DNA of 64,000 nucleotides from Candidatus Kryptoniota bacterium (GTDB lineage: Bacteria; Bacteroidota; Ignavibacteria; Kryptoniales; JAKASW01): positions 22,510 to 86,509 of the forward strand of contig DATCTN010000010.1 of NCBI GenBank assembly GCA_036567965.1. Reading direction: 5' to 3'. A model generated the notes under the pieces. That model was given only the letters and a program-made list of their open reading frames with translations, searched no databases and had not been told where the DNA came from. Below, piece by piece: positions 10,858 through 63,787 of this stretch (positions are counted from its first letter, which is position 1; every line of letters starts with the position of its first letter). The translations under genes were made by a program, and so were the position numbers.

Positions 10858-11048
10858 ACAGCGGAAAGAGAACGCAATCGGGTCCGGATACACGCGGAGA
10901 TATTCCCTGCAAGGGATTTATAGGCCGACTGAAGGACCGGTCGTCATATTTTGCGTAGAGTTTATTGTAAAGAAGAGACACACCGAGGGAGAATGTCCGT
11001 AAACCGAAATGGCAAGTCTCTCTTGAGGCAAACTCAACAGGAGTTAAA

Positions 11049-11498: not shown

Positions 11499-11614
11499 TT
11501 TCGAGTCTGCGCGGCGGCGATCGCTGCGAACCTCACGAGTTTCAGAAGCATCTCATTAGTCGAAGGTTTCTTGACTGACCTTGAGTACAACATTATCTTA
11601 TTGAAGAGAAAAAC

Positions 11615-12343: not shown

Positions 12344-12367
12344 AAGCGACCAACCAAAGGACAATAT

Positions 12368-45663: not shown

Positions 45664-46048
45664 GATAAATTCTCCACAAAGCCGGCCGTGCTTCAACACC
45701 GCCGCCTGATCGTACAATAAAAATTTAACCGAAGACGTGCCCAAGTTCAAGACGGCCGGCAGTGTCTCACTTTCAAAGGCCCCTGTCACCCCGAACACTG
45801 GATAGGAGTATTCCAGTGCAGGCTCGTTTCGGGGTCTAGAACTAAATGCTGAAAAAAGTTCAGTCCGAAGGACTCCTTTCCGAAGGAATCCTCTGGATCG
45901 GAGCATGATGGCGGAATGTAAGTTGAAACACTGCCAGACGGTCCGTCTTCTTGCGCGACCCCAGTGTTTTTGAATTAGCGTGCATTTCAATATCTTTATT
46001 ATGTCGCCGGGATCGGCGGTGTAGATCAGTCTGGATAACGGAGTGAAT

Positions 46049-46306
46049 ATGCACTTGCACCATGCGAAGATGCTCGTAAGCGGGAGCGTCATGATGATGA
46101 TGGGCATGTATATGATCATCGGTTCGCTCTGGATAATTTTCGGAGTCGCGTTCGAGTCAGCGGCGGTCACGACATTACCATCATACACGACAGTTATAAC
46201 TTCTGCATCCATCGTCTGGTCCGCGATAAGTTTAATCATATCGATTTATTTCATTCACCAGGTTCGGGAAATTTCAAAAAGACTCAGGCATGAGAGAAAG
46301 ACTTGA
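46049..46306 (+). CDS. Possible small Met/His-rich two-TM membrane protein
   Basis: MHLHHAKMLVSGSVMMMMGMYMIIGSLWIIFGVAF...IVWSAISLIISIYFI. GGAG sits 6 nt before ATG 46049. The end overlaps the prfA start by 17 nt. No family recognised. Confidence 0.3.
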   Translation: MHLHHAKMLVSGSVMMMMGMYMIIGSLWIIFGVAFESAAVTTLPSYTTVITSASIVWSAISLIISIYFIHQVREISKRLRHERKT

Positions 46307-48037: not shown

Positions 48038-49753
48038 TTATATTCCTAACTTTTTCATCTTTCGCCAAAGTGTCGAAGGATGCATGCCGAGTTCAGCGGC
48101 CGCTTTCACTCTGCTCCCGCCATGCTTGTTCAGGGTGCTTACGATTACGGAAGCCTCTGCCTCTTTGATAGACGAGGGATTTGTGAAGTGTACTCCTCGA
48201 TCTGCCTTCTTGATTCGTTCAGGCAGACACTCTGATCCGATAACGTCCTTTCCGCAAAGCACAAATGAATGCTCGATCACGTTCTCCAGTTCCCTCACGT
48301 TTCCAGGCCAGTCATATTTGCTGAGTACATCGTAAGCATCTGGGGAAAAGCGAACGACTTTCCTTGAGAATCTCTCGTTAAAATGAGTTATAAAGTGGGT
48401 TACTAACAGAGGGAGATCGTCCATCCTTTCTCTGAGCGGAGGGAGATGAACGTTTACGACATTAATTCTGTAGAAAAGATCCTTTCTGAATTTGCCGAGC
48501 TCTATTTGATCTTGCAGCGACTTGTTCGTAGCTGCGATGATTCTCGCGTTCATCTTTATGGTCCTATTGCCCCCGACCCGCTCAAACTGGCGAGTCTCGA
48601 GCACGCGCAAGAGTTTTGTTTGCACAGGCAGTGAGATGTCTCCGATTTCGTCCAGGAAAAGTGTGCCATCTTGCGCGAGCTCGAATTTTCCGATCTTTGT
48701 CTTGATCGCACCAGTGAATGCACCCTTCTCATGTCCGAACAATTCGCTTTCGATGAGCGATTCCGCGAATGCGCTGCAGTTCAGTGCGCCGAACGGCCCG
48801 TTGTGTCTTGCGCTATTGAGATGGATTGCCCTGGCAACAAGCTCCTTCCCTGTACCACTCTCGCCCGTGATCAGTACAGTTGAGTCCGTTTGGGAAACGC
48901 TGTCCAATAGCGTGAAGACCCGTCCCAACTCTTTGTTCTTGCCAATGATGTTCTCATATCTGAACTTCTCTTTCAAATGGTCCGAGAGATTCTTGATCTC
49001 GGAAATGTCGATGAAGGTCTCTACCGCACCGATTCTCTCTTGCTTGTTGTTCAGAAGGATCGCGGAGTTTACCCTTATTGGTACAGGCATCCCATCCTTA
49101 TTCGTTATTTCGAGCTCATTTCCTATCGTCGGCTTTCCTTTCATTATCGTCTGTTCCATGTGGCATCCGTTTCGACACAGAGGTGACTTAAATATCTCCC
49201 AGCATTTCCTTCCGACAGCTTCCCCTTTTCTATAGCCCGTTATCTTCTCGGCGGAATTATTGAACGAAGTCACGTTCCAGTCATTATCTATCGTAAATGT
49301 CCCTTCGATATTGCTGTTGAATATTGCGTCGAGTCTGTTTCTCTGGTCGATGAGTTCCAGTGTTTTGGTTTCGAGGTCTTCATGCAGCCTAAGCATCTCC
49401 TTCGTATCGCGGAAAACAAAAACAACACTGGTAACTTCTTCCGATTTCCCAATCGGAGTGATCGATGCCAGCACATTCTTGATCTGCCCGTTCTTGTCGA
49501 TGATATTGATCGACAGGTTGGACAGTCCTGTACCATCCGAGAGAGAATGGGAAACGTGTTCCACTTCCTGCTCGCTGCCTCGGAAAAGAATGTCGTAATG
49601 TTTGCCCACGATTTCGTCTTCACCATACCCCGTGATCCTCGAAGCTGCCTCGTTGAACACCATTATCTTGCAGTCCCGCCCGATGATGACTATCCCATCG
49701 GGGATGACCATGTTCTCCCTGCTCTCGTCGATGATGTTGATGACTTCTTTCAT
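48038..49753 (-). CDS. Sigma-54-dependent transcriptional activator (PAS-PAS-AAA+-Fis HTH)
   Basis: 571 aa. Two PAS modules. Walker A is GESGTGKE. The sigma-54 contact loop is ESELFGHEKGAFTGA. C-terminal HTH is AAAELGMHPSTLWRKMKKLGI. Confidence 0.93.
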   Translation of the reverse strand: MKEVINIIDESRENMVIPDGIVIIGRDCKIMVFNEAASRITGYGEDEIVGKHYDILFRGSEQEVEHVSHSLSDGTGLSNLSINIIDKNGQIKNVLASITPIGKSEEVTSVVFVFRDTKEMLRLHEDLETKTLELIDQRNRLDAIFNSNIEGTFTIDNDWNVTSFNNSAEKITGYRKGEAVGRKCWEIFKSPLCRNGCHMEQTIMKGKPTIGNELEITNKDGMPVPIRVNSAILLNNKQERIGAVETFIDISEIKNLSDHLKEKFRYENIIGKNKELGRVFTLLDSVSQTDSTVLITGESGTGKELVARAIHLNSARHNGPFGALNCSAFAESLIESELFGHEKGAFTGAIKTKIGKFELAQDGTLFLDEIGDISLPVQTKLLRVLETRQFERVGGNRTIKMNARIIAATNKSLQDQIELGKFRKDLFYRINVVNVHLPPLRERMDDLPLLVTHFITHFNERFSRKVVRFSPDAYDVLSKYDWPGNVRELENVIEHSFVLCGKDVIGSECLPERIKKADRGVHFTNPSSIKEAEASVIVSTLNKHGGSRVKAAAELGMHPSTLWRKMKKLGI

Positions 49754-49815
49754 ATTAGTTCCCCCTGCATCTCGTTTATGTTTGCTTGCCGCTGCTCAGG
49801 TTGACATTTCAATGT

Positions 49816-49853
49816 AATTGCAGTTGCGCAATCATTGCAATGGCCATTGCAAT
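49816..49853. promoter_or_regulatory. Cluster of TTGCAAT-type palindromes (candidate enhancer/UAS for the adjacent sigma-54 activator)
   Basis: ATTGCAATGGCCATTGCAAT is a perfect 20-bp palindrome (49834-49853). It is preceded by TTGCGCAA (49824-49831) and aATTGCAg. The cluster lies in the divergent intergenic region, 60-100 bp upstream of the -24/-12-like sequences. Confidence 0.55.
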
Positions 49854-49909
49854 ACCGCAAAGTATGTAAGCTTGTATCGCTTATTCCAAACGAAAAGCAA
49901 GGAAAATCG

Positions 49910-49936
49910 CGGCATGAGGATTGGCTTTATATCGCC
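49910..49936 (+). promoter_or_regulatory. Weak or ambiguous sigma-54 promoter-like sequences upstream of the NifX-like gene
   Basis: cGGCATGaggaTTGGc has correct GG-to-G spacing but GG instead of GC at -12. The overlapping TTGGCtttatatCGCc has its GC one nt too close. Neither is a clean match. Confidence 0.25.
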
Positions 49937-49959
49937 GTAAATAACAAAAGGAAGTGAAA

Positions 49960-50334
49960 ATGAATCGAAGATTAGCGGTGGCAATTGAAGAATCGAGCTC
50001 CGAAGAGCGGGTAGCTCAGCACTTCGGACATTGCGCCAAGTTCAATATCTGTGAGCTGGACTCAGAGAACAAAATTGTGAAGCAGGAATCCTATTTCAAT
50101 CCTTTGAACGGCGAGCATGGCGGTGCGTGCCAGCTCCCTGCTTATGTCAAGCAATTCAACGTCGACACGATCATCGCAGGGGGAATGGGGCGCAAAGCTG
50201 TCATGGGCTTTCAGCAAGCAGGCATCGAAGTCATTACGGCGCCCGGACTTCTCTTCAGTGAGGCGTTGAAACTATTCACCGAAGGCAAGTTGAGCGGCTA
50301 CGAGGAATGCGCAGGCCATGAGCATCATTCCTAA
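49960..50334 (+). CDS. NifB/NifX-family (dinitrogenase FeMo-cofactor-binding-like) small protein
   Basis: MNRRLAVAIEE...VAQHFGHCAKFNICELD...VDTIIAGGMGRKA...AGIEV is the typical PF02579-like pattern (from memory). ATG 49960 is preferred over GTG 49954. Confidence 0.8.
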   Translation: MNRRLAVAIEESSSEERVAQHFGHCAKFNICELDSENKIVKQESYFNPLNGEHGGACQLPAYVKQFNVDTIIAGGMGRKAVMGFQQAGIEVITAPGLLFSEALKLFTEGKLSGYEECAGHEHHS

Positions 50335-50356
50335 AAGTCAAGTAGAGTGACAGACC

Positions 50357-50947
50357 ATGATAATGCCAATATATCTCTATGGGACGAGGGTCTGGGATGG
50401 TACAGTTCGTAAGATCGATACGTTCGATGAAAAACTCGTTGGTATAATTCGGAATATGTTCGAGACATTACGAAGCGCGGACGGCGTCGGCCTGTCCGCA
50501 ACGCAGGTCGGGTTTCGGATATCTCTCTTCGTGATGGACATCTCGGAGATGGAAGGATATGCAGACGAACAACCGCTTGTCGTCATCAATCCAGAGATTC
50601 TTTCGTCGAGCGAAGAAACCAAGACGCTGGAGGAAGGATGTCTGAGTGTTCCGGGAATTTGTCTGGAGGTCACTCGCCCCGAATCCATCATTGTTCGATT
50701 TACTGATGGCAATTTTCAAACTGTCGAATGTGAATACAGTGTGGCCCTGGCCCGCGTGTTCCAGCATGAGTTTGATCACCTGCATCAGAAGTTCATCACA
50801 GATCGAGTATCAGCACTCAAGCGTCATATTCTCAAACCGAACCTGTCCAAAATCAAGCGAGGAGAGATTATTACGCGCTATCCAGTTATATCTCCGCCCG
50901 ATGAAAAAGTCATGAGACGTCCCGAAGTTTTCGATTATGCGAAATGA
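50357..50947 (+). CDS. def: Peptide deformylase (with a C-terminal extension)
   Basis: 196 aa. The three Def motifs are GVGLSATQVG, EGCLSVPG and QHEFDHL. Confidence 0.9.
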   Translation: MIMPIYLYGTRVWDGTVRKIDTFDEKLVGIIRNMFETLRSADGVGLSATQVGFRISLFVMDISEMEGYADEQPLVVINPEILSSSEETKTLEEGCLSVPGICLEVTRPESIIVRFTDGNFQTVECEYSVALARVFQHEFDHLHQKFITDRVSALKRHILKPNLSKIKRGEIITRYPVISPPDEKVMRRPEVFDYAK

Positions 50948-51030
50948 AAGGAATTGGCTACGCGTTAAAAATTATCACTGCACGATTGTACAAAGCTGTT
51001 GTTAACAAACTCAAACAAAAGGAGATATAA

Positions 51031-51285
51031 ATGTTTGGATATTATAACGACTTCGGTTACGGAAGAGGAATGGGTCATGGCTTTGGACACAGACACTGCC
51101 ATGGCGACGTCTTTGGTCCTAACTACGGAATGGGAAGAGGCTTTGGTCGATTTGGAGGAGCTTTCTTTGGCGAAAGCGATGTCGATGTGCTGAAGCGCTA
51201 TCGAGACCGTCTGGAACTTCATAAGAAATACATCGAAGCTGAACTCAAATACGTGGACGAGAGAATAACGTCGTTCGAAAAGTGA
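51031..51285 (+). CDS. DUF5320-like Gly/aromatic-rich protein with a C-terminal coiled coil
   Basis: 84 aa. GYGRGMGHGFGHRHCHG...GMGRGFGRFGG is followed by LKRYRDRLELHKKYIEAELKYVDERI. Strong SD (AAAGGAG). Family name is from memory. Confidence 0.65.
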   Translation: MFGYYNDFGYGRGMGHGFGHRHCHGDVFGPNYGMGRGFGRFGGAFFGESDVDVLKRYRDRLELHKKYIEAELKYVDERITSFEK

Positions 51286-51347
51286 TAAACATCGTGGCCG
51301 TGGTCTATGCACCACGACCACATCAAACTTGCTGAGGAGCTACAAAT

Positions 51348-51536
51348 ATGAGCAAAGGTCATGGCGGTGGCATGGGCGCAGGCGGATATTGTGTCTGCCT
51401 GAAGTGCGGGTACAAAAAACCTCACGAGCGAGGAGCGCCGTGTATGGAAGAGAGATGCCCTAACTGCGGGAAAGCCCTCATGCGTGAGGGATCTGAACAC
51501 TACAATCTGGCATTAGCAAAGAAAGAGAAGAAGTAG
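51348..51536 (+). CDS. Small 4-Cys zinc-ribbon-like protein
   Basis: 62 aa. G-rich N-terminus, then C.C.KCG...(14)...CPNCG. SD is GAGGAG. It is recalled as co-occurring with DUF5320/NifX-like genes. Confidence 0.6.
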
Positions 51537-51540
51537 GCTC

Positions 51541-52086
51541 ATGTTCGTGCTATCGAGAATATTTTTTACAAAAGGGGTCGGAAAACACAAGGATTATCTA
51601 AGTTCATTTGAGCTTGCCCTTAGAGATGCGGGTATCGAGAAGTGCAACCTTATCTCAGTCAGCAGCATTTTCCCTCCGTGCTGTAAAAAAATCAGTTTGG
51701 CTGAAGGGCTGAAGGAAATACAAAGCGGGCAGATCACCTTCACCGTGATGGCGCGGAGCGCTACCAACGAGCCGAACCGCCTTGTCGCCGCATCCATAGG
51801 AGCTGCGATTCCAGCCGAATCGAATCAATACGGTTACCTTTCTGAACACCATGCTTTCGGCGTCAACGAAAAATCGGCAGGCGATTACGCAGAGGATCTC
51901 GCCGCGCAAATGCTCGCGACCACTCTCGGAGTGGAATTTGATCCGAACACAGACTGGAACGAGCGTGAGCAGGTGTTCAGGATGTCTGAGAAAATAGTCC
52001 GCACGTTCAACCTAACTCAGACAGCTGAGGGAGACAAAAACGGGTTATGGACGACAGTTGTGGCAGCTGCCATTCTATTGCCATGA
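51541..52086 (+). CDS. pdaD: Pyruvoyl-dependent arginine decarboxylase
   Basis: 181 aa. [39 protein letters not shown] matches the PdaD N-terminus, including the self-cleaving SS site. Confidence 0.85.
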
Positions 52087-52099
52087 ACCAAGGAGCACC

Positions 52100-52486
52100 A
52101 TGCCGCTGTTTAGAACCGAAATAGAGTTTGAGGTCAGCACTTACGACATCGACGCAGCACACCACGTAAACAATATAGTTTATGTCAGATGGCTCGAAGA
52201 CCTGCGATGCAAGTTATTGGCTTCCCGCTATCCAGTCGAAGAGCTATTGAAGAGAAATCTGTACCCCGTTGTTGCGCTGACCAAGATTCGTTATCGAAAC
52301 CAATTGAGGTTGGCCGACAAGCTCGAAGGGATTATTTGGGTTGAATCGATTGAGCACGGTCTGATGCGACTGAAAGCGATATTTCAAAAGGCGGATTTAG
52401 TTATTGTCACAGCCGAACAGGAATGTGTATTGATGGATTTGCAAACCGGTAAGATGGATAAGAAGGCGATGGAAATTTACTTGTGA
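52100..52486 (+). CDS. Hotdog-fold acyl-CoA thioesterase (4HBT/YbgC-like)
   Basis: The start is ATG 52100 with AAGGAG upstream. V.TYDIDAAHHVNNIVYVRWLED has the catalytic Asp context. Confidence 0.78.
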   Translation: MPLFRTEIEFEVSTYDIDAAHHVNNIVYVRWLEDLRCKLLASRYPVEELLKRNLYPVVALTKIRYRNQLRLADKLEGIIWVESIEHGLMRLKAIFQKADLVIVTAEQECVLMDLQTGKMDKKAMEIYL

Positions 52487-52495
52487 GGGGAGGGG

Positions 52496-53212
52496 ATGAA
52501 TTCTATGGAAGAAAATAAGAGTCGTTGGTACGACGGTCTTTTTTACGATTTGTTTATCGCCCCGCACCAGGACAAAGTCTTTGCACAGGTGAAAGAAATC
52601 CTGTCCAAGGACTCGACACTTCTCGATGTTGGCTGCGGTACTGGCAGGCTTGCCTCTCAAATCCTGGACAAATGTGAGAGAATTGAAATCATAGACCCTT
52701 CGGAGAAGAATATCAGTATCGCGAAGCGCAAATTTGCAGAAGTTCCTCCCGACAAACTCTTTATCCGGCATACAGATGGATTGACGTTCCTTCGGAATGG
52801 CGGAGTTCATTATGATTTTGTGGTTATGTCTTACGTGCTCCACGAAATTGCGGAAGAGGAAAGAGATGTGCTCTTATGGGGACTCTCGAGAGTTGCGGAC
52901 AAGATTATTATCGTAGATTACCTTGTCCCCGAACCGAGAAATTATTGTGCCATCCTCAATCGCCTTGTCGAATGGGCTGCGGGTTCAATCCACTATAGGA
53001 ATTTAAAATCATTCATGAAGGCTGGGGGGATCTTGGGTCTTCTGGAGAAAGTCCCATTGAACGTTCTAAGCGAGGTGAAAAACCGACCCTGCTCAAGCCA
53101 CATTGCTGTACTTGAGGGAAAAACCGGAAGAAACGGCAAATCTCAACTTCATGGTCCAGTACCCGACAGAACTGAAATAAGAGTGAAGATATACGAACCG
53201 AATCGATCGTGA
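52496..53212 (+). CDS. Class I SAM-dependent methyltransferase
   Basis: 238 aa. Motif I is LLDVGCGTGRL, followed by the downstream segment FVVMSYVLHEI. Confidence 0.75.
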   Translation: MNSMEENKSRWYDGLFYDLFIAPHQDKVFAQVKEILSKDSTLLDVGCGTGRLASQILDKCERIEIIDPSEKNISIAKRKFAEVPPDKLFIRHTDGLTFLRNGGVHYDFVVMSYVLHEIAEEERDVLLWGLSRVADKIIIVDYLVPEPRNYCAILNRLVEWAAGSIHYRNLKSFMKAGGILGLLEKVPLNVLSEVKNRPCSSHIAVLEGKTGRNGKSQLHGPVPDRTEIRVKIYEPNRS

Positions 53213-53231
53213 AAAAGATCCCAAATTATCT

Positions 53232-53247
53232 TGGCATGGTAATAGCG
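53232..53247 (+). promoter_or_regulatory. Candidate sigma-54 (-24/-12) promoter upstream of the DsrE-like gene
   Basis: TGGCATGgtaaTAGCG compared with the consensus TGGCACG-N4-TTGCW. GG (53233-34) and GC (53245-46) have the canonical 12-nt register. It lies about 70 bp upstream of ATG 53318. Confidence 0.55.
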
Positions 53248-53317
53248 CATCCGGTCGGGTTCATCACTAATGTAGTATTTAGCCACTTAACACAATTGGA
53301 CAACCCAAGGAGACTGG

Positions 53318-53670
53318 ATGAACATTCTTATACCGATTAATGATGCTCCTGTCGAACGGAAAAAGCTTACAACGCCTTCAGGCTGGCGATGGCGATTCAA
53401 AAAGATCATTCAACTGTACAGGTCAACGTATTTTTAATGGCGGATGCAGTCAGTTGTGGAATTTCGAATCAAAACACAGCGCAGGGTTATTACAACATCG
53501 AAAGGATGATCAAGGCTGTTGTTCAAAAGGGCGGGAAGATCAAAGCCTGCGGCACATGCGCTGATGCCAGAGGGGTCAAGAGCCTCCCACTCATCGAGGG
53601 AATCGAGGCAAGCAACATGGCAGAACTTGCCATGTGGACGGTCGAGGCAGACACGATCTTAACTTTTTGA
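53318..53670 (+). pseudogene. DsrE-family sulfur-relay protein interrupted by an apparent 1-nt deletion (frameshift)
   Basis: Frame 1 from ATG 53318 reads MNILIPINDAP, then nonsense until a stop at about 53437. The +2 frame reads ...TEKAYNAFRLAMAIQKDHSTVQVNVFLMADAV...YYNIERMIKAVVQKGGKIKACGTCADARGV... to 53670. Adding one nt near 53351-53356 (gtcgaacg to gtcGgaacg) restores a 117-aa DsrE-like protein. The SD is AAGGAG. Confidence 0.7.
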
Positions 53671-53806
53671 CACCTAGAGCACGCGATCTACGATTGGCTC
53701 AGTTACCTATTGCTCGCATTTTGATATTGCAATGCAGCCGCTGAGTAATTCATCACATTGAAGCCACTTAGGGCATAAATTCCTTAAGCTTCCGCAATAT
53801 TTGTCC

Positions 53807-53822
53807 AGGTACAATAGTTGCC
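53807..53822 (+). promoter_or_regulatory. Candidate sigma-54 (-24/-12) promoter upstream of the marR-tusA-hdr-like operon
   Basis: AGGTACAatagTTGCC has GG 53808-09 and GC 53820-21 in the canonical register, about 28 bp before ATG 53850. An ATTGCAAT palindrome identical to the 49.8-kb half-site sits at 53726-53733, about 80 bp upstream. Confidence 0.5.
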
Positions 53823-53849
53823 AATCCTGTCAGCGATGGAAGGACAAGG

Positions 53850-54281
53850 ATGACGAAAGACTATGCATCCGGGACAAGTATGCTCCGGTTAGCTCTTGCA
53901 TGCCGAAGGTTTCAAAAGAGACTTGCCAGCGGGACCGGCTTGTCCACAAATGAAATCATCTGCTTGTTAATCCTGCACATGCAGGAGTTGAAATCCGTAA
54001 GTGAATTAAGCTCCATTGTGGATCTCTCCTGCACCTCCACCTCCAAGATTCTTTCCAAGCTCCAGAAAAAGAGGTGCATTGAAATTGCCTTGCATTCTTC
54101 CGACAGGCGCAAGGAGCAAGTCGTACTCACCGACTTCGGACGCGGAATGTCAGAGAGGTTGTTGTCCAGTTCGAAAGACCTTGCAATGGATGTGCTTGCC
54201 AGTCTGCCTGAGAACATGAAGATGGAATTCGCGAATTGGATACAATGGCATTCGGTCGACAACAGCAGCGAATCAACTTAA
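53850..54281 (+). CDS. MarR-family winged-helix transcriptional regulator
   Basis: 143 aa. LSTNEIICLLILH...SVSELSSIVDLSCTSTSKILSKLQKKRCIE...DRRKEQVVLTDFG is the MarR wHTH pattern. Confidence 0.75.
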   Translation: MTKDYASGTSMLRLALACRRFQKRLASGTGLSTNEIICLLILHMQELKSVSELSSIVDLSCTSTSKILSKLQKKRCIEIALHSSDRRKEQVVLTDFGRGMSERLLSSSKDLAMDVLASLPENMKMEFANWIQWHSVDNSSEST

Positions 54282-54308
54282 CCAAATTTTCTATAGAGGA
54301 GAATTTGT

Positions 54309-54566
54309 ATGTCTACAACTATCGATCTTAACACGATGAAAGCCGCGAAAGTAGCGGACGCACGTGCCATGGCGTGTCCAGGTCCGCTGCTGGAAGCGAA
54401 GAAGAGTATCGGTACCGTCAAAGTGGGCGAAGTACTAGAAATATGGTCCGGAGATCCGAATACGAAGAAAGATATGCCAGCTTGGTGCCAGAAAGTCGGC
54501 CATGAATTTCTCGGAGTCATCCCAGCCGACGGTTACGACCGACTCTTCATTCGCAGGAAAAAATAA
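54309..54566 (+). CDS. tusA: TusA-family sulfurtransferase / sulfur carrier
   Basis: 85 aa. DARAMACPGPLLEAKK contains the CPxP active-site motif. The context G.VLEIWSGDP.....M.AWC...GHEF is typical. Confidence 0.88.
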   Translation: MSTTIDLNTMKAAKVADARAMACPGPLLEAKKSIGTVKVGEVLEIWSGDPNTKKDMPAWCQKVGHEFLGVIPADGYDRLFIRRKK

Positions 54567-54616
54567 CAGGTACAAGAGGGGCTGACTTATTAATGAAAGA
54601 AACTCTGTAGTTTCGA

Positions 54617-55060
54617 ATGGCTAATAGTCTACCAGGAAATAATTGCAAGATCCTATTGCTCGCAACTCTGTCCGGCGGCTATCGTGGTGCAGACTCGGCA
54701 GGGCAATCTCACATTGATTATTCGCCGAACACATTCATACTTCCAGTCCGGACTTCCGCTATTTTTCCGCCGCAGTTCTACTTGAATTCGTTGGAGCATG
54801 GCTTCGATGCGATCATTGTGATGTACAGCGGGACCGACAGCCCTTACAAAGGCGAGTCGGAGCGGACGGCGGAGATTATTAATATGACTTACGCGATAAT
54901 GAAGGAAAAAGGGATCGATACTCGCAGGTTGCGGCTGGCCGCAATTTGCACCGTCTGTGTGAAACCCTTTCTCAATGAGATTCAAAAGATGAATGCACTC
55001 CTTGATGAGATTGGACCAGTTGCACGTCCGATTCAAGTGGTGAGTCTGCAGATAAAATAA
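54617..55060 (+). CDS. MvhD/FlpD-like protein lacking the canonical cluster-binding cysteines
   Basis: 147 aa. It is colinear with the remembered MvhD pattern (KIV.F.CNWCSYAGADLAG...YP.N.RII.V.CSGR....F.L.A...GADGV.V.GCH.GDCHY..G......R......L.E.GI...R.R). Here it reads KILLLATLSGGYRGADSAG...YSPNTFILPVRTSAI...GFDAIIVMYSGTDSPYKGE...GIDTRRLRL. Confidence 0.7.
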   Translation: MANSLPGNNCKILLLATLSGGYRGADSAGQSHIDYSPNTFILPVRTSAIFPPQFYLNSLEHGFDAIIVMYSGTDSPYKGESERTAEIINMTYAIMKEKGIDTRRLRLAAICTVCVKPFLNEIQKMNALLDEIGPVARPIQVVSLQIK

Positions 55061-55063
55061 ACG

Positions 55064-56401
55064 GTGAATTTTCAAATGGCAGCAGAGAAATTTCAAGTCG
55101 ATAGTCTCATAGTCGGAGGCGGAATCGCAGGTATGCAGTCGGCACTCGATCTCGCAGACCATGGCTATAAAGTTGCACTGGTGGAAAAGAATCCGAGTGT
55201 CGGCGGAAAAATGATCGGCTTAAGCAAAGTCTTTCCGACTCTCGACTGCTGCAGCTGCATTACTACTCCCAAGATGTCGGCAGTTGCTCACCATGACAAC
55301 ATTGAACTCTTGACATACTGCGAGGTAGATTCAGTGTTTCGCAACCACGGTGCCTTCGAAGTGCGGGTAACGAAAAAACCGCGCTACGTGAAGGAGAACG
55401 ATTGCACAGGCTGCAGAGCCTGTGAGCTGGTTTGTCCGATCGAATTGCCCGACGAAGAGAACGAGTTCGGCCGCATTGGCCGGCGCGTCATTTATGTCCC
55501 ATTCGCAACTGCCGTTCCGCAAAAAGCGGTCATCGATATTGAGCATTGTGTGTTTTGCGGGAAGTGCATTCCTGTCTGCGCGCCGAACGTCATCGATTTT
55601 CACCAAGCACCTGAAGAGATAGAAATTGAAGCGAAGACAATCATACTCGCCACGGGCTATGAGGTAACTCCGCGAAGTGCCAAAAAGGAATACGGCTCGG
55701 GAAAACTCAGAAACGTAATCGATGGACTCATGATGGAACGCCTCCTAGCTCCGACGGGACCTTACGGACATGTGCTGCGTCCCTCTGATGGTAAGCAGCC
55801 TTCCTCAATCGCCTACGTGCAATGTGCCGGGTCACGGGATCAGACACTAGGCGTGCCGTATTGCTCACGCGTCTGCTGTATGTACGCAATCAAGCAAGCA
55901 ATGCTCCTTTCCGGGACGCTTCCGATGGCGGACATCACGATCTATTACATGGATATCCGTACGTTCGGAAAGGGATACGAGCAATTCTATCAGAGCGCGA
56001 AGGCTATGGGAATTGAATTTGTGAAGGGAAAGGTCGCCAGGATCTCCGAAGACTCTGACCAGAATCCCGTCGTCCGAGTAGAGATGATCGATGACAATTC
56101 GCGCGTGATCGAACGAAAGCACGACCTTGTCGTTCTTTCAGTTGGCATGCTGCCGGGTTGGAATACGGAAAAAGACTTCGGCGTCGCCACGGCCGATGAC
56201 GGTTTCGTTGAAATCCCCGATTGCAATATCGCGCCGACTGTTACCGCACAGCCCGGCATTTTCGCTGCTGGAACAGCGACTGGCCCGATGGATATCGTTG
56301 ACAGCATCATGACAGCTGGTGCCGCAGCGGCAGAAGCCGCCGGATATATCGAGGCCAACTTCTCGGAAAAGGTAATCTCGGGGACTTTTGCCCATGTCTG
56401 A
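55064..56401 (+). CDS. HdrA-like FAD/FeS oxidoreductase, short form (QmoA-like) with an inserted 2x[4Fe-4S] ferredoxin motif
   Basis: 445 aa (GTG 55064 or ATG 55076). FAD fold is VGGGIAGMQSALDLA. Cys motifs are CTGCRACELVCP and CVFCGKCIPVCAP. HdrA signature is CAGSRD...YCSRVCCMYA. Confidence 0.85.
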   Translation: MNFQMAAEKFQVDSLIVGGGIAGMQSALDLADHGYKVALVEKNPSVGGKMIGLSKVFPTLDCCSCITTPKMSAVAHHDNIELLTYCEVDSVFRNHGAFEVRVTKKPRYVKENDCTGCRACELVCPIELPDEENEFGRIGRRVIYVPFATAVPQKAVIDIEHCVFCGKCIPVCAPNVIDFHQAPEEIEIEAKTIILATGYEVTPRSAKKEYGSGKLRNVIDGLMMERLLAPTGPYGHVLRPSDGKQPSSIAYVQCAGSRDQTLGVPYCSRVCCMYAIKQAMLLSGTLPMADITIYYMDIRTFGKGYEQFYQSAKAMGIEFVKGKVARISEDSDQNPVVRVEMIDDNSRVIERKHDLVVLSVGMLPGWNTEKDFGVATADDGFVEIPDCNIAPTVTAQPGIFAAGTATGPMDIVDSIMTAGAAAAEAAGYIEANFSEKVISGTFAHV

Positions 56402-58220
56402 CAATCCTGAGAAGAGAGAAATGGAGAGACAGGAGCCGAAGATTGGCGTTTACATTTGTGATTGCGGTGGAAACATCAGCGATACGGTGAACTGTCAGAG
56501 AGTTGCAGAAGCTCTGGCAAAACTTCCGAACGTTGCTGTGTCACGGCGCTGCCAGTTCATGTGCTCCGATGCCGGTCAGAAGCTTGTCACAGACGACATT
56601 AGCGAGAACGGTGTCAATCGTGTCGTCGTGGGAGCGTGCTCCATTTTCCTTCACGAGCAGACTTTTCGAAGAACCGTCCAGCGTGCGGGGTTGAATCCCT
56701 ACTTCTATTATCACATCGGGTTGCGTGAACAGGACAGTTGGGTGCACCACGCTTGTCCGCCTGAAGCAACGGAGAAAGCCGTGAGGATGATGTCTGCGGG
56801 AGTTGCGAAAGCACGCAAGCTGCGACCACTCGAGTCGATTCATCTAGAAGCAGAAAAGCATGTCCTGGTTATTGGCGGCGGCGTAGCGGGACTGCGTGCC
56901 GCGCTATCGATTGCCCGCACCGAATTGAGAGTGACGCTCATCGAGAAAAGCAACTCTCTCGGCGGACACGTCATGCAGTGGAATCGGCTTTTCCCGACAG
57001 ATGAAGATGCCCGCAAAGTTGTCAACCGCCTCATCGCCGATGTGATGGCAGAGAACAAAATCGAAGTGATGACAGAAACGGAAGTGATATCCTCGAAAGG
57101 ATATGTCGGAAATTTCGATGTAAGAATTCGAAAACAATCCACCGAGACCGACATAAGAATTGGCGCAATCGTCATCGCGACTGGTTTCGAACCGTACGAT
57201 CCATTTCAGGGCGAGCTCGGCTATGGAACATATCCTGAGGTCATTACCCTTCCTCAATTGGAAAGTCTTCTCTCAGATCTGGCCGAACACGAGCTAAGAT
57301 GGAACAGCCATCCTGTACGCAGCGTCGCGATGATCCATTGCGTAGGGAGCCGACAGGTCGAAGGTGTGCACAAGCCCCAGCTCGACGGCAAAGTGAATGA
57401 CTATTGCTCTCGGGTGTGCTGCACCGCAACCCTGGCAGCTGCGAATGAAATCCGTGAGAGATTCCCCGATGTAAATGTGTACGATGTCTATCAGGACATC
57501 CGCGCTTACGGCCGCGGCCATGAAGATTATTATCTAAGAGCCTCGAAGAACCGTGTCACGTTCATTCGCTACTTTGCCGAGGAAGCGCCCGAGGTTCTCC
57601 ATGCTGAAGAAGGCGACCAATTTCCCCTCCTGGTGAAAGTGAAAGATCATCTGACATGGGGAGAAGAGATCGAACTGCCGGTGGACTTGGTTGTCCTTTC
57701 CGTTGGTATGATGCCGAGTCCCATTCAGGATTTGATGAGCATGTTCAAGGTTGCTCCGGGGAGCGATCGGTTTCTTCTCGAAGTGCATCCCAAACTAAGG
57801 CCCGTCGAGACGGCGGTTCCGGGCATTGTATTGGCAGGTACGGCGCAGGCACCCATGAACGTTCTGGAGAGTTGCGCAGCTGCAGAGGCTGCGGCTTCAA
57901 AAGTCAGCATTCTCCTGTGTCGCGGCGAAGTTGAACTTGAGCCTTACGTAGCGCAAGTGGATCCGGATCTTTGCAAGGGTAGCGGAGAGTGCGTTCGATT
58001 ATGTCCACAGGAAGGCGCCATCCACCTCGAGACGATCAACGTTGATGGCAAATCAACTCAGCGAGCTGTAGTGACAGAAGCGAACTGCAACGGTTGTGGA
58101 GTATGTGTGAGTGCTTGTCCTAATAGGGCAATTGACGTTCAGGGCTGGCAGCTCGACGAGTATGAGGCTATGGTACAGGCTATCGTTGCCGACATGCCTG
58201 CATTGGAGGACATTCCATGA
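56394..58220 (+). CDS. HdrA-like FAD/FeS oxidoreductase, long form (QmoB/HdrA-like)
   Basis: HdrA N-terminal domain is IGVYICDCGGNIS...FMCSDAGQ...VVVGACS..LHEQTFRR...GLNPY......LREQDSWVH. FAD fold is IGGGVAGLRAAL. CVGSRQ...YCSRVCC is present. C-terminal motifs are CKGSGECVRLCP and CNGCGVCVSACP. The start ATG 56394 overlaps the upstream stop (ATGTCTGA). Confidence 0.88.
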   Translation: MSDNPEKREMERQEPKIGVYICDCGGNISDTVNCQRVAEALAKLPNVAVSRRCQFMCSDAGQKLVTDDISENGVNRVVVGACSIFLHEQTFRRTVQRAGLNPYFYYHIGLREQDSWVHHACPPEATEKAVRMMSAGVAKARKLRPLESIHLEAEKHVLVIGGGVAGLRAALSIARTELRVTLIEKSNSLGGHVMQWNRLFPTDEDARKVVNRLIADVMAENKIEVMTETEVISSKGYVGNFDVRIRKQSTETDIRIGAIVIATGFEPYDPFQGELGYGTYPEVITLPQLESLLSDLAEHELRWNSHPVRSVAMIHCVGSRQVEGVHKPQLDGKVNDYCSRVCCTATLAAANEIRERFPDVNVYDVYQDIRAYGRGHEDYYLRASKNRVTFIRYFAEEAPEVLHAEEGDQFPLLVKVKDHLTWGEEIELPVDLVVLSVGMMPSPIQDLMSMFKVAPGSDRFLLEVHPKLRPVETAVPGIVLAGTAQAPMNVLESCAAAEAAASKVSILLCRGEVELEPYVAQVDPDLCKGSGECVRLCPQEGAIHLETINVDGKSTQRAVVTEANCNGCGVCVSACPNRAIDVQGWQLDEYEAMVQAIVADMPALEDIP

Positions 58221-58531
58221 CTGTGGACAAGAAGCAGGAAGCGCGAGAGCGAACGCGGATGCTCCTGGAGCTCCGGAAGGAATACTCCGTCACGGTGGAG
58301 AATGCGCAGGAATTGTTAAAGAAACAGCAAGCGGCGCGCAAGCTTCTCGAGAAAGCTATGCTCGACGGCCCTCACTCGATACCACACTTAGCTCAACAGA
58401 CCGGCATTCCCGCCGATGAGGTCTTATGGCATGTTGCTTCGATGAAGAAATATGGAATCGTTGTGGAAGTGGGGACTGACGAATCGGGGGATTACTTCGT
58501 CTACTCGTTAAGCAAGGAGGGGAAATCGTGA
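58217..58531 (+). CDS. Small protein with an N-terminal helical segment and a C-terminal winged-helix-like fold, inserted between the HdrA-like and QmoC-like genes
   Basis: 104 aa. ATGA overlap upstream and GTGA overlap downstream, with SD GGAGGA. The C-terminal segment SIPHLAQQTGIPADEVLWHVASMKKYGIVVEVG...YFVYSL resembles a wHTH. No family recognised. Confidence 0.65.
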   Translation: MTVDKKQEARERTRMLLELRKEYSVTVENAQELLKKQQAARKLLEKAMLDGPHSIPHLAQQTGIPADEVLWHVASMKKYGIVVEVGTDESGDYFVYSLSKEGKS

Positions 58532-59697
58532 GTTATCGAGCGGATCCGAGCTTCATTTCCCAGCTTCGAAAATATGGAGCGGTGAATATCGAGTCATGCT
58601 TTAACTGCGGCAACTGTACCGCTGTGTGTCCTCTCTCTTCGGACGAAGACAACTTCCCGCGTCGGATGATCCGTTATGGACAACTTGGAATGAAAGATAA
58701 ACTTCTCGGAAGCAAGGAGCTTTGGCTGTGCTATTCCTGCGGTGAATGCACGGCGACATGTCCGCGGCAGGCTGACCCGGGAGAATTCATGGCAGCCGCA
58801 AGAAGATATGCAATTGCCCGGTACGACAGGGTCCGACTTGCAAGCTTGATGTACACGTCATCCATATTTAACCTTCTATTTCTGCTCTTCCTGGCAGTGG
58901 TGCTGGGCACTTTCATTTACTCTTTCCATGGTTCAATGCCCACCCAATCGCTCCGCCTATTCGACTTCATTCCTTCCGAAGTGATCCATGATGCCGGAAT
59001 CATCGCGGGTCTCGTCGTTATTTTAATCGCTATGTTGGGGTCCTTCAGCATGATCTCCAACATCAGAAGAAACATTGCTATTCCTGAGGATATTCGCTTC
59101 GATCACAAGTCGGCAATGACTGAAACAATCGCCGAAGTCTTCACCCAGCGGAGATATCGGCGCGATTGCAAGACTTCTTTGAAAACTCAGCCGTGGTATT
59201 TCCAGAAATGGTTTCTTCACGCGTCGATGCTCTGGGGATTCATGGGATTGTTCCTTGCGACTGCCCTTGACTTTTTCCTTGCCTTGACTGGAACGAAGCC
59301 GACAGGAACATGGGTGCCTATCTGGTATCCTGTCCGCCTGCTTGGAACGCTCGCAGGACTCATGCTCATGTATGGCACTACGGGTGCGATTGTTAAACGG
59401 TTGCTCAAGGGAGATGATTCATATCGACATTCTACCTCTACCGATTGGTCTTTCCTTGTGATCTTATGGCTATCGGGTCTGACGGGGTTTGTCTTGGAAG
59501 TTGCAGTTTATCTTCCGGAGCCGCACGCTTGGAGTTACTGGATGCTTCTCGCCCATTTGATCATTGTGGGAGAGCTGCTCATACTTCTGCCTTTCACAAA
59601 GTTTGCACATGTCATTTATAGAACAATGGCTCTTTACGTTCACGCTCTCAAGCCCCTACCGGAAACGGAACCTGCCGTGACTGAAGTAAAGGAATGA
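58528..59697 (+). CDS. QmoC-like membrane subunit: HdrC-type 2x[4Fe-4S] domain fused to an HdrE/NarI-type multi-TM (putative di-haem b) domain
   Basis: 389 aa. Motifs CFNCGNCTAVCP and CYSCGECTATCP are followed by about 6 hydrophobic helices with conserved His (e.g. FLHASMLWG, LLAHLIIVGE, FTKFAHVIYR). Confidence 0.82.
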   Translation: MSYRADPSFISQLRKYGAVNIESCFNCGNCTAVCPLSSDEDNFPRRMIRYGQLGMKDKLLGSKELWLCYSCGECTATCPRQADPGEFMAAARRYAIARYDRVRLASLMYTSSIFNLLFLLFLAVVLGTFIYSFHGSMPTQSLRLFDFIPSEVIHDAGIIAGLVVILIAMLGSFSMISNIRRNIAIPEDIRFDHKSAMTETIAEVFTQRRYRRDCKTSLKTQPWYFQKWFLHASMLWGFMGLFLATALDFFLALTGTKPTGTWVPIWYPVRLLGTLAGLMLMYGTTGAIVKRLLKGDDSYRHSTSTDWSFLVILWLSGLTGFVLEVAVYLPEPHAWSYWMLLAHLIIVGELLILLPFTKFAHVIYRTMALYVHALKPLPETEPAVTEVKE

Positions 59698-59762
59698 ATG
59701 TCGATGGTTGAGAATGTGAAATCGAATCAAATCTGAATCACAAAATCAAAGGAGATCTTAAA

Positions 59763-60125
59763 ATGGCTGAGAAAATGATGGTCGTATGCAACGGTTCAGC
59801 GCCAAGCAATATCATGCCGGCGTTGATTTTCGCTTCATCCGGCATTGCACTCGATTATGAGGTGCACATGTTTTTTTGTCCGGCTGGTGCACAAATGCTC
59901 GTAAAAGGTGAATTGGAGAAACTCGGGACACCTAAGGGGATGCCTAACCCAGTGAATCTGTTCAACACGATAATGGACCAGAAGGGCAAAGTCGTGTTCT
60001 GCGAGCTTGCAATTGAAAACAAAGGGATCAAGCCCGAGGACCTACGCGACAAGCGTATCGTCATTGAGAAAGTACCACCGTTCCTCATGGGTGCGAGCGG
60101 AGCGGGAATGACCTTCGTGTTCTAA
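59763..60125 (+). CDS. DsrE/DsrF/DrsH-like (DsrE2-type) small protein
   Basis: 120 aa. MMVVCNGSAPSNIMPALIFASSGIALDYEVHMFFCPAGAQML...VFCELA resembles the PF13686-type pattern (from memory). Strong SD. Confidence 0.7.
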   Translation: MAEKMMVVCNGSAPSNIMPALIFASSGIALDYEVHMFFCPAGAQMLVKGELEKLGTPKGMPNPVNLFNTIMDQKGKVVFCELAIENKGIKPEDLRDKRIVIEKVPPFLMGASGAGMTFVF

Positions 60126-60137
60126 AAACACTTTATA

Positions 60138-60176
60138 GAGAGCGGCGAGTACCTCCTCTCCCTCGCCGTTCTCTTT
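60138..60176. terminator. Hairpin between convergent genes (candidate bidirectional terminator)
   Basis: GAGAGCGGCGAG-(12 nt)-CTCGCCGTTCTC forms a 12-bp stem with one mismatch, followed by ttt. Confidence 0.55.
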
Positions 60177-60447
60177 AATATCCTGGCATGTCGGCTAATC
60201 GGCCGGCGTTGGTTATGTTTGTGTAGCCGCTGATCCTGAGAATCTTCGGATCGTAAGTATTTCTTGCACCGGATTTACAGTAAACAATCACAAGTTTTGT
60301 TTTTTCGCCGATCTCCAATATTCTCAACTGCAATTGATCCGCCGGGATGTTGATGGCATCGGGATGGTGACCATCTTCGTGTTCATATTATGATCGGACG
60401 TCGATGATGAGTCCGCCCGATTTTAGCTTATCTATTAATGAAGGCAT
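60175..60447 (-). pseudogene. Single-domain rhodanese sulfurtransferase with an in-frame TAA at codon 20
   Basis: The minus-strand translation is MPSLIDKLKSGGLIIDVRS*YEHEDGHHPDAINIPADQL...KLVIVYCKSGARNTYDPKILRISGYTNITNAGRLADMPGY*. It has the rhodanese signature DVR..(x)E...GH.P.AINIP and the active-site loop CKSGAR. The TAA is at 60388-60390. It is absent from the ORF track because of this stop. Confidence 0.75.
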
Positions 60448-60601
60448 GTTTTCATTTCTCGCTTATTAATTTTCATTTTAAAATTTCTATCTATTGACCT
60501 GCCCCCCAATTAGCGATCCAGTCTTGAGTCAGCAGTCTCGACCAAGGAATACCTTGCCTGGGCCCATTTTCCGGGCAACGACTGGGATTTCGATATCTAA
60601 A

Positions 60602-60633
60602 AAGTTCGAGTCATCGTTCCGATCGGGGAGCAA
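60602..60633 (+). repeat. 32-nt exact direct repeat, copy A (partner at 63303-63334)
   Basis: aagttcgagtcatcgttccgatcggggagcaa is identical at both sites, with weaker similarity in the flanks. On the minus strand both copies encode LLPDRNDDSN(F/L). Confidence 0.85.
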
Positions 60634-60815
60634 CGAGGCCAGCGTCCTTCACTCTGTCGCCGCGATAATCTCGCCGTAAAGTCCCTCTCGCCCGGAATCG
60701 CAATATCCTCATCACGTTGCCAATACTTGGCAGGAACACCACCTTATCACCATTAAATCAAATGGGCGGGTCAGCGGGATTATGAGACACTAAAGTCCTT
60801 GGGGCAAAGCCCATC

Positions 60816-63196: not shown

Positions 63197-63505
63197 CTAC
63201 ACCAACTCGGTCGGAGAATACTCTTCATGATGTTGTCTCACCGCCAATCGAATCTCTCCCCTCGCCAGTTTCTGCAAAATCACCTCGATCATGACTCTTA
63301 CCAAGTTCGAGTCATCGTTCCGATCGGGGAGCAAAGCGGTCGGATCTACCAACTCCAGAACGTTCTCCAAGAGCCCTTCGATGGACAAGCCTTCTCGCTT
63401 AGGTTCCGTTTTCGTCTGCTCAAAGGCGTCTTCTGTATTCCTACCTTGTACTCCCTCGGAAGTTATGATCACGAACAATTCTTCATTGTTGCTTATCCGG
63501 GGCAA
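63197..63505 (-). CDS. Hypothetical protein (about 102 aa, TTG start) carrying repeat copy B
   Basis: The ORF has no recognised domain. It contains ...LVDPTALLPDRNDDSNLVRVMIEVILQKLARGEI.... A stop-interrupted fragment of a related sequence lies at about 60500-60650 on the minus strand. Confidence 0.35.
   Translation of the reverse strand: MPRISNNEELFVIITSEGVQGRNTEDAFEQTKTEPKREGLSIEGLLENVLELVDPTALLPDRNDDSNLVRVMIEVILQKLARGEIRLAVRQHHEEYSPTELV
63303..63334 (+). repeat. 32-nt exact direct repeat, copy B (partner at 60602-60633)
   Basis: See copy A. The two copies bracket the DUF5916 copy-2 gene in direct orientation. Confidence 0.85.
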
Positions 63506-63787
63506 TGCAGATTCCGGGAATTGTCAAAGATGCCAGAGCTCCGTTCGCAAAGTAAGATCCCAAGGGGTGGCCTTGTCGCGACCACGCGCACTTGACAATG
63601 AGGTTCATGTTCGGTAACGTCAGGTGTCGGGACTGTCAAGTATTCGGGACGTTGTGATTTGAAAGGGGACAACCGTATGCATCAAATGAAAAGCCCTAAA
63701 GGTCCGAGAAGAACTCTGTTTATCGCTTATCTTCCAGGCGTCCCGACGAGTGTATGTAGTACTGCGGGCACTGCCAGACCTTCGGGG

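Follow-up and report, generated by a model that had tools for sequence, protein, structure and literature searches.

The QmoABC complex links quinone to a cytoplasmic sulfur enzyme: its haems b can be reduced by quinol, QmoA contacts AprAB, and electron confurcation has been proposed (PMC3333476). Type II Qmo proteins, which passages of Neukirchen et al. 2023 describe as closer to typical HdrA than to bacterial QmoAB, are found according to the same passages in V. moutnovskia and A. degensii, both of which reduce sulfate (PMC10504309). The sHdr complex is supplied by TusA and DsrE proteins (PMC11094781), and in methanogenic Archaeoglobi a complex of MvhAGD, two HdrA and QmoC has been proposed to bifurcate electrons from H2 to menaquinone and ferredoxin (PMC10945360). 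Here, we analyze a gene module in a 64,000-nucleotide (nt) stretch, referred to as the window, of a 4.57-Mb contig from a Candidatus Kryptonia metagenome-assembled genome (MAG); all positions follow the window numbering. We consider it probable that the genes between 53318 and 60125 form a self-contained module in which a TusA/DsrE sulfur relay is joined to a Qmo-like, quinone-interacting complex, and that the complex moves electrons between carrier-bound sulfur and quinone.

Comparison with related loci showed that the conserved unit covers approximately 53318-60125 and encodes, in this order, DsrE, a MarR-like regulator, TusA, an MvhD-like protein, two HdrA-like proteins, a winged-helix (wH) protein of 104 amino acids (aa), a QmoC-like subunit and a short DsrE2-like protein (Table 1). 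The original prediction had drawn a larger island, from 48038 to 60447. All genes listed for this island were found in the stated order and on the stated strands by open reading frame (ORF) listing and Pfam/NCBIfam scans, but its extent was too large, as the genes from NifX to the methyltransferase represent local synteny that is not conserved with the module. The core genes are tightly joined, as had been noted before. The gap between the genes of the MvhD-like protein (FlpD) and the short HdrA is 3 nt, the genes for the short and the long HdrA overlap, and the junctions between long HdrA and wH and between wH and QmoC overlap by 4 nt each, so that only a 3-nt gap or overlapping stop and start codons separate the five genes. 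Annotation of the 64-kb window, which included all ORFs of at least 220 aa in positions 1-14000 and every called gene from about 14000 on, revealed no apr, sat, dsr, sox, hdrB (CCG) or lipoate-binding genes and thereby bears out the earlier statement that aprBA, sat and dsr are missing from it.

Scanning one genome per GTDB species yielded 80 related loci from about ten phyla. The carriers belong to Ignavibacteria/Kryptonia, Chloroflexota, NC10, Acidobacteriota, Actinomycetota, Gemmatimonadota, Bacillota, Planctomycetota and Spirochaetia, and include one Heimdallarchaeota MAG. Gene order was counted in the 58 loci with at least 6.5 kb of upstream sequence. The genes for TusA, the MvhD-like protein, both HdrA-like proteins and wH are co-linear with the QmoC gene in 51 of them, and five of the seven exceptions lack only a detectable wH gene, which is short and divergent. 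TusA is the first core gene in 56/58 loci. Furthermore, profile searches with hidden Markov models from three DsrE subtypes detected a DsrE-family gene on the same strand and inside the module in all complete loci (52/52). Its position varies: it precedes tusA, separates mvhD from hdrA or follows qmoC. In the sister Kryptonia genome (L002), the order DsrE-MarR-TusA-MvhD-HdrA-HdrA-wH-QmoC-DsrE2 is kept within different flanks, which contain neither a sigma-54 activator nor a rhodanese gene.

Beyond the module itself, all-against-all clustering of the neighboring ORFs revealed no other recurrent family, including no Apr, Sat or Dsr, within 10 kb on either side of the 80 loci. Similarly, in a Pfam scan of 130 of the 356 flanking ORFs, the families with at least four matches were LysR (9), ArsR (4), XRE-type helix-turn-helix plus cupin (4) and radical SAM (4), and no Apr-, Sat- or Dsr-like family was among the 25 most frequent. 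Conservation as a unit had been set beforehand as a test on which the original prediction could be refuted, as had routine proximity to aprBA/sat. The unit is conserved in 51 of 58 loci across about ten phyla, and no aprBA or sat family recurs in the flanks of its relatives. The core of the prediction, an uncharacterized, Apr-independent complex tied to a sulfur relay and to quinone, thus survives. A plasmid tblastn search for a cultured, annotated carrier of the module gave no match. In one Chloroflexota locus (L005:10025-12240), the only module genes are those for QmoC and DsrE2, which a 192-aa ORF separates, and a 1381-aa ORF lies upstream at the place that the genes from tusA to wH normally take; this copy of the module seems to be rearranged or decayed.

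The two HdrA-like proteins match HdrA structures at E values of about 1e-120, and both contain the GxGxxG FAD motif. Residues 7-426 of the short HdrA align to residues 134-558 of methanogen HdrA 8rvv_A (E 3e-122), whereas its match to sHdrA (6tjr) reaches an E value of only 4e-37. The long HdrA aligns with residues 8-251 to residues 4-246 and with residues 249-601 to residues 320-654 of HdrA 8rvu_a, skipping target residues 247-319, which form the inserted ferredoxin domain. The cluster cysteines of the short protein are kept in 61-72 of 73 sequences and the cysteine pattern of the long protein in 69-71 of 74. Between them, the two paralogs provide the N-terminal, the inserted ferredoxin and the C-terminal ferredoxin domain exactly once each. 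Because each accessory HdrA domain is present in a single copy, we infer that the two proteins pair asymmetrically, as QmoA and QmoB do, in a heterodimer that corresponds to the homodimer of HdrA. A variant of the module has a short HdrA whose ferredoxin domain contains an inserted GltD/NfnB-like NAD(P)H module (Fer4_20 plus Pyr_redox_2). Genes similar to the example at L064:5243-7963 were found in about 22 loci from Actinomycetota and part of Chloroflexota, and the gene order of this variant is tusA-mvhD-dsrE2(long)-hdrA(Nfn)-hdrA-wH-qmoC.

The MvhD-like protein has lost its cluster ligands. Relative to the MvhD chains 5odc_D and 9sw2_D, the motifs CCNWC, MCSG and GCHxGDCH are changed to TLSGG, RTSA and YSGTDSPY, i.e., all canonical [2Fe-2S] cysteines are replaced, and this loss is family-wide. 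The protein had been predicted to be a separate, upstream and cysteine-less MvhD. It is indeed separate and upstream, but it does contain cysteines, namely C10, C111 and C114. The motif C111-x-x-C114 is present in 63/65 sequences and invariant in alignment A3, and His32 is invariant in the family. An AlphaFold2 (AF2) model of the protein with a predicted local distance difference test (pLDDT) score of 79 gave template modeling (TM) scores of 0.70-0.84 to the MvhD chains 5odh_D, 5odc_D, 8rvu_F and 7bkb_F; on this model, the MvhD fold is retained despite the lost cluster ligands. Judged by topology only, the CxxC motif would follow strand 4 in a loop and mark the start of a helix, which is the classic position of a redox-active dithiol. 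The NCBI name of the protein is "hydrogenase iron-sulfur subunit", and the Joint Genome Institute (JGI) names relatives "F420-non-reducing hydrogenase iron-sulfur subunit". Since the family is devoid of Fe-S ligands and is not encoded beside a hydrogenase, the hydrogenase label is a systematic misannotation.

In the QmoC-like protein, the eight cysteines of two CxxCxxCxxxCP motifs are kept in 81-82 of 82 sequences. His231, His343 and His361 are present in all 82 and His154 in 81/82. This set of conserved residues is consistent with the binding of two [4Fe-4S] clusters and two haems b. Against the NCBIfam qmoC model NF038018, which has a cutoff of 300 bits, the window protein scores 221 bits and nine relatives score 192-211 bits. 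Because all members tested lie between 192 and 221 bits, and hence under 300, the profile scores mark them as a coherent sister group to QmoC and not as degraded QmoC. The family is large: at E≤1e-10, more than 2,000 clusters of 90% identity contain relatives of the QmoC-like protein, and for the MvhD-like protein there are likewise more than 2,000 at E≤1e-5. In the deposited record, the QmoC-like protein is given a shorter start.

The additional wH gene, which had been reported to lie between the B-like and C-like genes, was confirmed and occupies the same position in most relatives. Pfam and NCBIfam gave nothing above cutoff for its product. The AF2 model of the protein (pLDDT 90.6) consists of a 45-residue N-terminal helix followed by a winged helix, and Foldseek returned weak, generic matches to MarR/ArsR folds, including SqrR, BigR and YodB, with TM scores of about 0.55. 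The family comprises 147 representative clusters at E≤1e-10. A role as an SqrR-like persulfide sensor was rejected, as the protein has no cysteine. It is a candidate for either a subunit or an embedded regulator.

The sulfur-carrier side of the module is represented by TusA and proteins of the DsrE family. The active-site cysteine of TusA (C23-P-G-P) is kept in 64/64 aligned sequences, i.e., in the window protein and in 63 related loci. The DsrE2-like protein matches PF13686 but reaches only 25 bits against the NCBIfam DsrE2 equivalog NF047629, far under the cutoff of 210; these profile matches place it in the DsrE family as a short and divergent protein. Its Cys80 is kept in 24/24 sequences. 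The start of the DsrE gene is preceded by a good Shine-Dalgarno sequence, and comparison with the intact 117-aa ortholog of the sister genome (L002:4780-5133) revealed that 1 nt is deleted near 53351-53365. The remaining 93-aa ORF matches PF02635 with 60.6 bits; once the frame is repaired, the score is 69 bits and the full profile is matched. The rhodanese gene is interrupted by an in-frame TAA (TTA at 60388-60390 of the plus strand; context DVRS*YEHEDGH), and its interval carries no called gene in the deposited record. The 70-aa part downstream of the stop, which was the part scanned, matches PF00581 with 27.7 bits. A rhodanese gene is missing from the sister genome and from nearly all relatives. 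The defects in dsrE and in the rhodanese gene may be errors of the assembly, which looks long-read, or real decay. The proposed link to persulfide carriers is stronger than could be foreseen for TusA and the DsrE family, given their near-constant presence in the module, and does not extend to the rhodanese, which is not conserved and is interrupted here.

In the mechanism that we favor, the relay would consist of TusA and one or two DsrE-family proteins, and the complex of the cluster-less MvhD-like protein, the complementary HdrA pair, wH and the QmoC-like subunit with its putative two [4Fe-4S] clusters and two haems b. Sulfane sulfur on TusA, present as persulfide or possibly thiosulfonate and exchanged with DsrE2/DsrE, would serve the cytoplasmic head as redox partner. 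This partner is suggested because the conserved genetic partners of the complex are TusA and the DsrE family, not AprAB; carrier-bound sulfur would thus occupy the place that adenosine 5'-phosphosulfate (APS) reductase has in canonical QmoABC. Two electrons would pass between the carrier-bound sulfur and an HdrA flavin, with the HdrA pair holding two flavins and an Fe-S wire. The CxxC motif of the MvhD-like protein might act as a dithiol/disulfide (or persulfide) relay with Cys23 of TusA. As the input cluster of MvhD is replaced by CxxC, dithiol exchange with Cys23 is the most specific testable idea that follows from the module. By analogy to QmoABC, electrons would then run along the Fe-S chain, reach the haems of QmoC and pass on to menaquinone.

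A second branch could use the ferredoxin domains and would probably end at a soluble carrier. In modules of the type found in the window this would be ferredoxin, and in the actinobacterial and some chloroflexal variants NAD(P)H, because their short HdrA contains the inserted GltD/NfnB-like module. A second soluble partner is hence suggested by these ferredoxin domains and, in the variant, by the NAD(P)H module, and it would permit flavin-based bifurcation or confurcation. Gene content, cofactor-binding motifs, conservation and genomic context are direct results of the sequence comparisons. The direction of electron flow is a matter of inference: persulfide could be reduced to sulfide, or TusA could be loaded by the oxidation of sulfide or thiols. 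The same applies to the substrate and to bifurcation. The potentials of sulfide/persulfide (about -270 mV), menaquinone (about -75 mV) and ferredoxin (about -450 mV) would fit the scheme in either direction.

Several observations weigh against this mechanism. The module encodes no subunit with known sulfur chemistry, i.e., no HdrB non-cubane clusters, molybdopterin, sirohaem or LbpA, which makes the catalytic step conjectural. Of the four proposed relay genes, dsrE and the rhodanese gene are broken as read. The placement of the CxxC motif relative to the former cluster site of MvhD follows from secondary-structure topology only. If the family is identical to type II Qmo, an Apr-linked role is possible in some hosts. 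Finally, some other Kryptonia MAGs carry dsrAB, dsrMK and aprB according to parts of a published supplement (PMC10504309).

The missing sulfur-active subunit could also mean that the module is a flavin-based ferredoxin or NAD(P)H:quinone oxidoreductase with a logic similar to Fix/EtfABCX, in which TusA and DsrE are accessories, for example for cofactor sulfur supply, repair or regulation, and sulfur compounds do not serve as energy substrates. The built-in GltD/NfnB-like module of the variant would fit such an enzyme, the HdrA architecture is that of known bifurcating enzymes, and the Mvh-HdrA2-QmoC complex proposed for Archaeoglobi illustrates that the scaffold can be used with non-sulfur donors (PMC10945360). 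We nevertheless regard this explanation as unlikely. It accounts neither for TusA as the leading gene of almost every locus and the DsrE-family gene in every complete module, nor for the exchange of the MvhD input cluster for CxxC. The recurrent regulators moreover include the ArsR type, the family of the sulfide/persulfide sensors SqrR and BigR, which is only suggestive.

Another explanation keeps the sulfur chemistry and assigns it to housekeeping: the module would detoxify reactive sulfur species or assimilate reduced sulfur by reducing TusA-bound cytoplasmic persulfide or polysulfide to sulfide with quinol and a low-potential donor, in a process that neither is respiratory nor conserves energy. 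Its occurrence not only in anaerobes but also in lineages of aerobes and heterotrophs, its small and self-contained nature and the regulators of thiol-sensor-type families nearby are in line with this idea. However, a dihaem quinone module and two Fe-S flavoproteins would be a costly solution given that soluble persulfide reductases exist. The mechanism overlaps with the one we favor, and only the physiological role differs. We hold such a role to be quite improbable.

Least of all do we expect an ordinary QmoABC-type complex, perhaps of type II, that serves an APS reductase encoded elsewhere and has TusA and DsrE2 as mere neighbors from the same sulfate/sulfite pathway: the subunit logic of two HdrA-like proteins plus QmoC is the same, the passages on type II Qmo place proteins closer to HdrA in sulfate reducers, and dsr and aprB are listed for some Kryptonia MAGs in parts of the same supplement (PMC10504309), but aprBA and sat are neither found in the window nor recurrent around the 80 loci, the carriers include lineages not known for dissimilatory sulfate metabolism (Nanopelagicales, Propionibacteriaceae, Granulicella), QmoC stays under the equivalog cutoff in every member tested, and TusA and a DsrE-family gene are near-universal in the operon, a feature that PMC3333476 does not report for its sat-aprBA-qmoABC clusters.

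Electron exchange between carrier-bound sulfur and quinone thus remains our preferred explanation. It can be extended to a bolder proposal, which we advance as a doubtful one, that the module represents a third major cytoplasmic sulfur-trafficking redox system beside Dsr and sHdr. Here, the CxxC motif would swap sulfane sulfur with TusA and the HdrA heterodimer would bifurcate electrons from sulfide/persulfide, one going to menaquinone via QmoC and the other to ferredoxin or, in the NfnB-like variant, to NAD(P)+. If this were true, Chloroflexota, Actinomycetota, Acidobacteriota and the Fibrobacteres-Chlorobi-Bacteroidetes (FCB) group would gain a cryptic means of conserving energy or of obtaining low-potential reductant from reduced sulfur.

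With respect to regulation, the locus had been described as a sigma-54-associated island with two -24/-12 promoters and MarR control. The sigma-54 part of this description found no support as a general trait of the module. The activator lies about 4 kb upstream, is divergent to another operon and is missing from the sister genome and most relatives. Both proposed promoters are matches with two mismatches, and such matches occur at chance density, with 47 found in the whole window and 44 expected. Upstream of tusA, -24/-12 sites were found in 2/61 loci, compared to about 0.095 expected per 360 nt, and are thus not enriched. A few Acidobacteriota and NC10 loci have a sigma-54 activator nearby. 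A Bryobacterales locus (L072:5357-5371) has a site with one mismatch, TGGAACGGTGCTTGC, directly ahead of dsrE-tusA, together with a sigma-54 activator. The perfect site TGGCACTGGAGTTGC of an Acidobacteriota locus (L077:2309-2323) precedes a different gene, which is located between the activator and the module. To judge from such sites, some lineages may use sigma-54 control, but it does not define the module.

MarR control is specific to one lineage. A MarR-like gene adjoins the core in the window and probably encodes the local regulator of the operon. This gene is kept only in the sister genome; in other relatives, ArsR, LysR or XRE-cupin regulators occupy the corresponding position or lie close to it. 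Ahead of the MarR-like gene, and overlapping the stop codon of dsrE, there is a sigma-70-like promoter match that is, as a pattern match, a candidate at least as good as the proposed -24/-12 site. A search for inverted repeats in the intergenic region between dsrE and the MarR-like gene yielded nothing robust.

Upstream of the module, the window encodes a Nitro_FeMo-Co (NifX-like) protein, def, an 84-aa ORF, a 62-aa ORF, PvlArgDC, a 4HBT thioesterase and a methyltransferase; Pfam did not support the label "DUF5320-like" that had been used for a gene in this group. On the other side, a 37-nt direct repeat (95% identical; 60602-60638 and 63303-63339) flanks a DUF5916/CBM9 gene on the minus strand (60816-63164), and short ORF fragments near 60494-60680 resemble parts of ORFs at 63197-63617. 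A paralog of the DUF5916 gene is located at 23913-26216. Elsewhere in the window, two GAF-SpoIIE (PP2C-type phosphatase) genes are adjacent to each other at 43-2043 and 2864-4615, and a PAS histidine kinase gene (42440-44227, minus strand) adjoins a HemN-like radical SAM ORF with a long N-terminal extension (44275-46239, minus strand).

Table 1. Features of the module and its surroundings, in window coordinates.
Feature	Position	Strand	Remarks
PAS-PAS sigma-54 activator	48038-49753	-	Divergent to the genes from NifX-like to methyltransferase, i.e., different operon
Second weak -24/-12 candidate	53232-53246	+	2 mismatches
DsrE-family sulfurtransferase gene	53318-53670	+	Frame disrupted; open remainder is a 93-aa ORF, 53389-53670
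Sigma-70-like promoter candidate TTGACA-16-TACGAT	53667-53694	+	10/12 consensus matches, perfect -35; pattern match only
Weak -24/-12 candidate AGGTACAATAGTTGC	53807-53821	+	2 mismatches; -12 GC lost in sister genome
MarR-like winged-helix regulator	53850-54281	+	MarR_2 25.4 bits, MarR 22.4 bits, both just under gathering cutoff
TusA sulfur carrier	54309-54566	+	PF01206, 68.7 bits; active-site Cys23 in CPGP motif
MvhD-like subunit (FlpD)	54617-55060	+	PF02662, 57 bits; separate gene upstream of HdrA pair
Short HdrA-like flavoprotein, 445 aa (QmoA-like)	55064-56401	+	Thioredoxin-reductase core with inserted 2x[4Fe-4S] ferredoxin domain
Long HdrA-like flavoprotein, 610 aa (QmoB-like without MvhD)	56388-58220	+	N-terminal domain, thioredoxin-reductase core, C-terminal ferredoxin domain
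104-aa wH protein	58217-58531	+	Cysteine-free; translationally coupled on both sides; between long HdrA and QmoC
QmoC-like membrane subunit	58528-59697	+	HdrC-like 2x[4Fe-4S] domain and about six hydrophobic segments (hydropathy)
Short DsrE2-like sulfurtransferase, 120 aa	59763-60125	+	PF13686, 33.4 bits (cutoff 25)
Single-domain rhodanese gene	60175-60447	-	CKSGAR active-site loop; interrupted; peripheral to module

The module belongs to a large uncharacterized family that extends over about ten phyla and includes abundant soil and freshwater lineages. In public databases, its parts are named "QmoC", "ferredoxin" and "hydrogenase iron-sulfur subunit", and the module is probably mis-annotated. 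With such labels, metagenomes may easily be taken, wrongly, to encode sulfate reduction, sulfite oxidation or hydrogen metabolism, an error that is corrected once the module is recognized as a unit of its own that is independent of Apr and linked to TusA and DsrE. With seven genes, an invariant CxxC and a natural NAD(P)H variant, the module is compact and offers a way to probe how Hdr/Qmo-type complexes couple protein-bound sulfur to the quinone pool, and to probe bifurcation. A full-text literature search gave no description of a tusA-mvhD-hdrA-hdrA-wH-qmoC module, the nearest being the remark on type II Qmo and the Archaeoglobi cluster.

The name "type II" QmoABC is associated with Chernyh et al. 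2020 and Neukirchen et al. 2023. The HdrA-like proteins of the module, with their close match to methanogen HdrA, fit the description of type II in the passages cited above, and the module family, compared by description only, may be type II Qmo or part of it. An association with TusA, an MvhD-like protein, wH or DsrE is not mentioned in the passages and supplementary text of PMC10504309 that were searched.

The sHdr systems of types I and II share with the module an Hdr-derived flavo-Fe-S complex that is genetically tied to TusA and DsrE-family proteins, DsrE3 in the case of sHdr, and ArsR-type regulators are common near both (PMC11094781, PMC6776052). However, sHdr has HdrB1/B2, HdrC and lipoate-binding proteins and no QmoC, whereas the module has QmoC and neither HdrB nor LbpA, and its short HdrA is far closer to methanogen HdrA than to sHdrA. 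A tusA/hdr cluster of T. roseum was considered as the same system and rejected; it is a type II sHdr with HdrB, LbpA and Etf. The rhd-tusA-dsrE2 relay of sulfur oxidizers has in common with the module a DsrE2-family protein and a TusA with the CPxP cysteine; a rhodanese remnant as a further shared element is confined to this window. It differs in that the DsrE2-like protein of the module is short, soluble and far from the equivalog score, and in that the rhodanese is not conserved. Moreover, the rhd-tusA-dsrE2 relay is wired to DsrEFH, DsrC and rDsr and that of the module to a Qmo-like complex.

The MvhAGD-HdrA-HdrA-QmoC cluster of methanogenic Archaeoglobi resembles the module in having two HdrA, an MvhD and a QmoC-type membrane subunit (PMC10945360). 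There, the MvhAG hydrogenase is the donor and MvhD presumably bears its cluster, whereas the module has no hydrogenase, a ligand-less MvhD and sulfur carriers. Canonical (type I) QmoABC shares the two HdrA-like FAD/Fe-S subunits, a QmoC composed of an HdrC-like 2x[4Fe-4S] domain and an HdrE-like dihaem cytochrome b, an MvhD-like module, and the presumed electron transfer between menaquinone and a cytoplasmic sulfur-related partner (PMC3333476). In contrast to QmoB, which carries MvhD as a fused C-terminal domain, the long HdrA ends after its C-terminal ferredoxin domain and the MvhD-like protein is encoded separately upstream, without the [2Fe-2S] cysteines and with a newly gained CxxC. A wH gene separates the B-like and C-like genes, the QmoC score lies below the equivalog cutoff, and TusA and a DsrE-family protein are integral, with no aprBA or sat near the module in the window or recurring in the flanks of the 80 relatives. 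The architectural differences that had been pointed out for this locus, i.e., the separate MvhD, the extra wH and the lack of HdrB/LbpA, are thus real and family-wide. Taken together, the module would work like a Qmo complex yet stands apart from canonical QmoABC in its equivalog score, in the unfused MvhD and in having no association with Apr in the window or in the flanks of its relatives.

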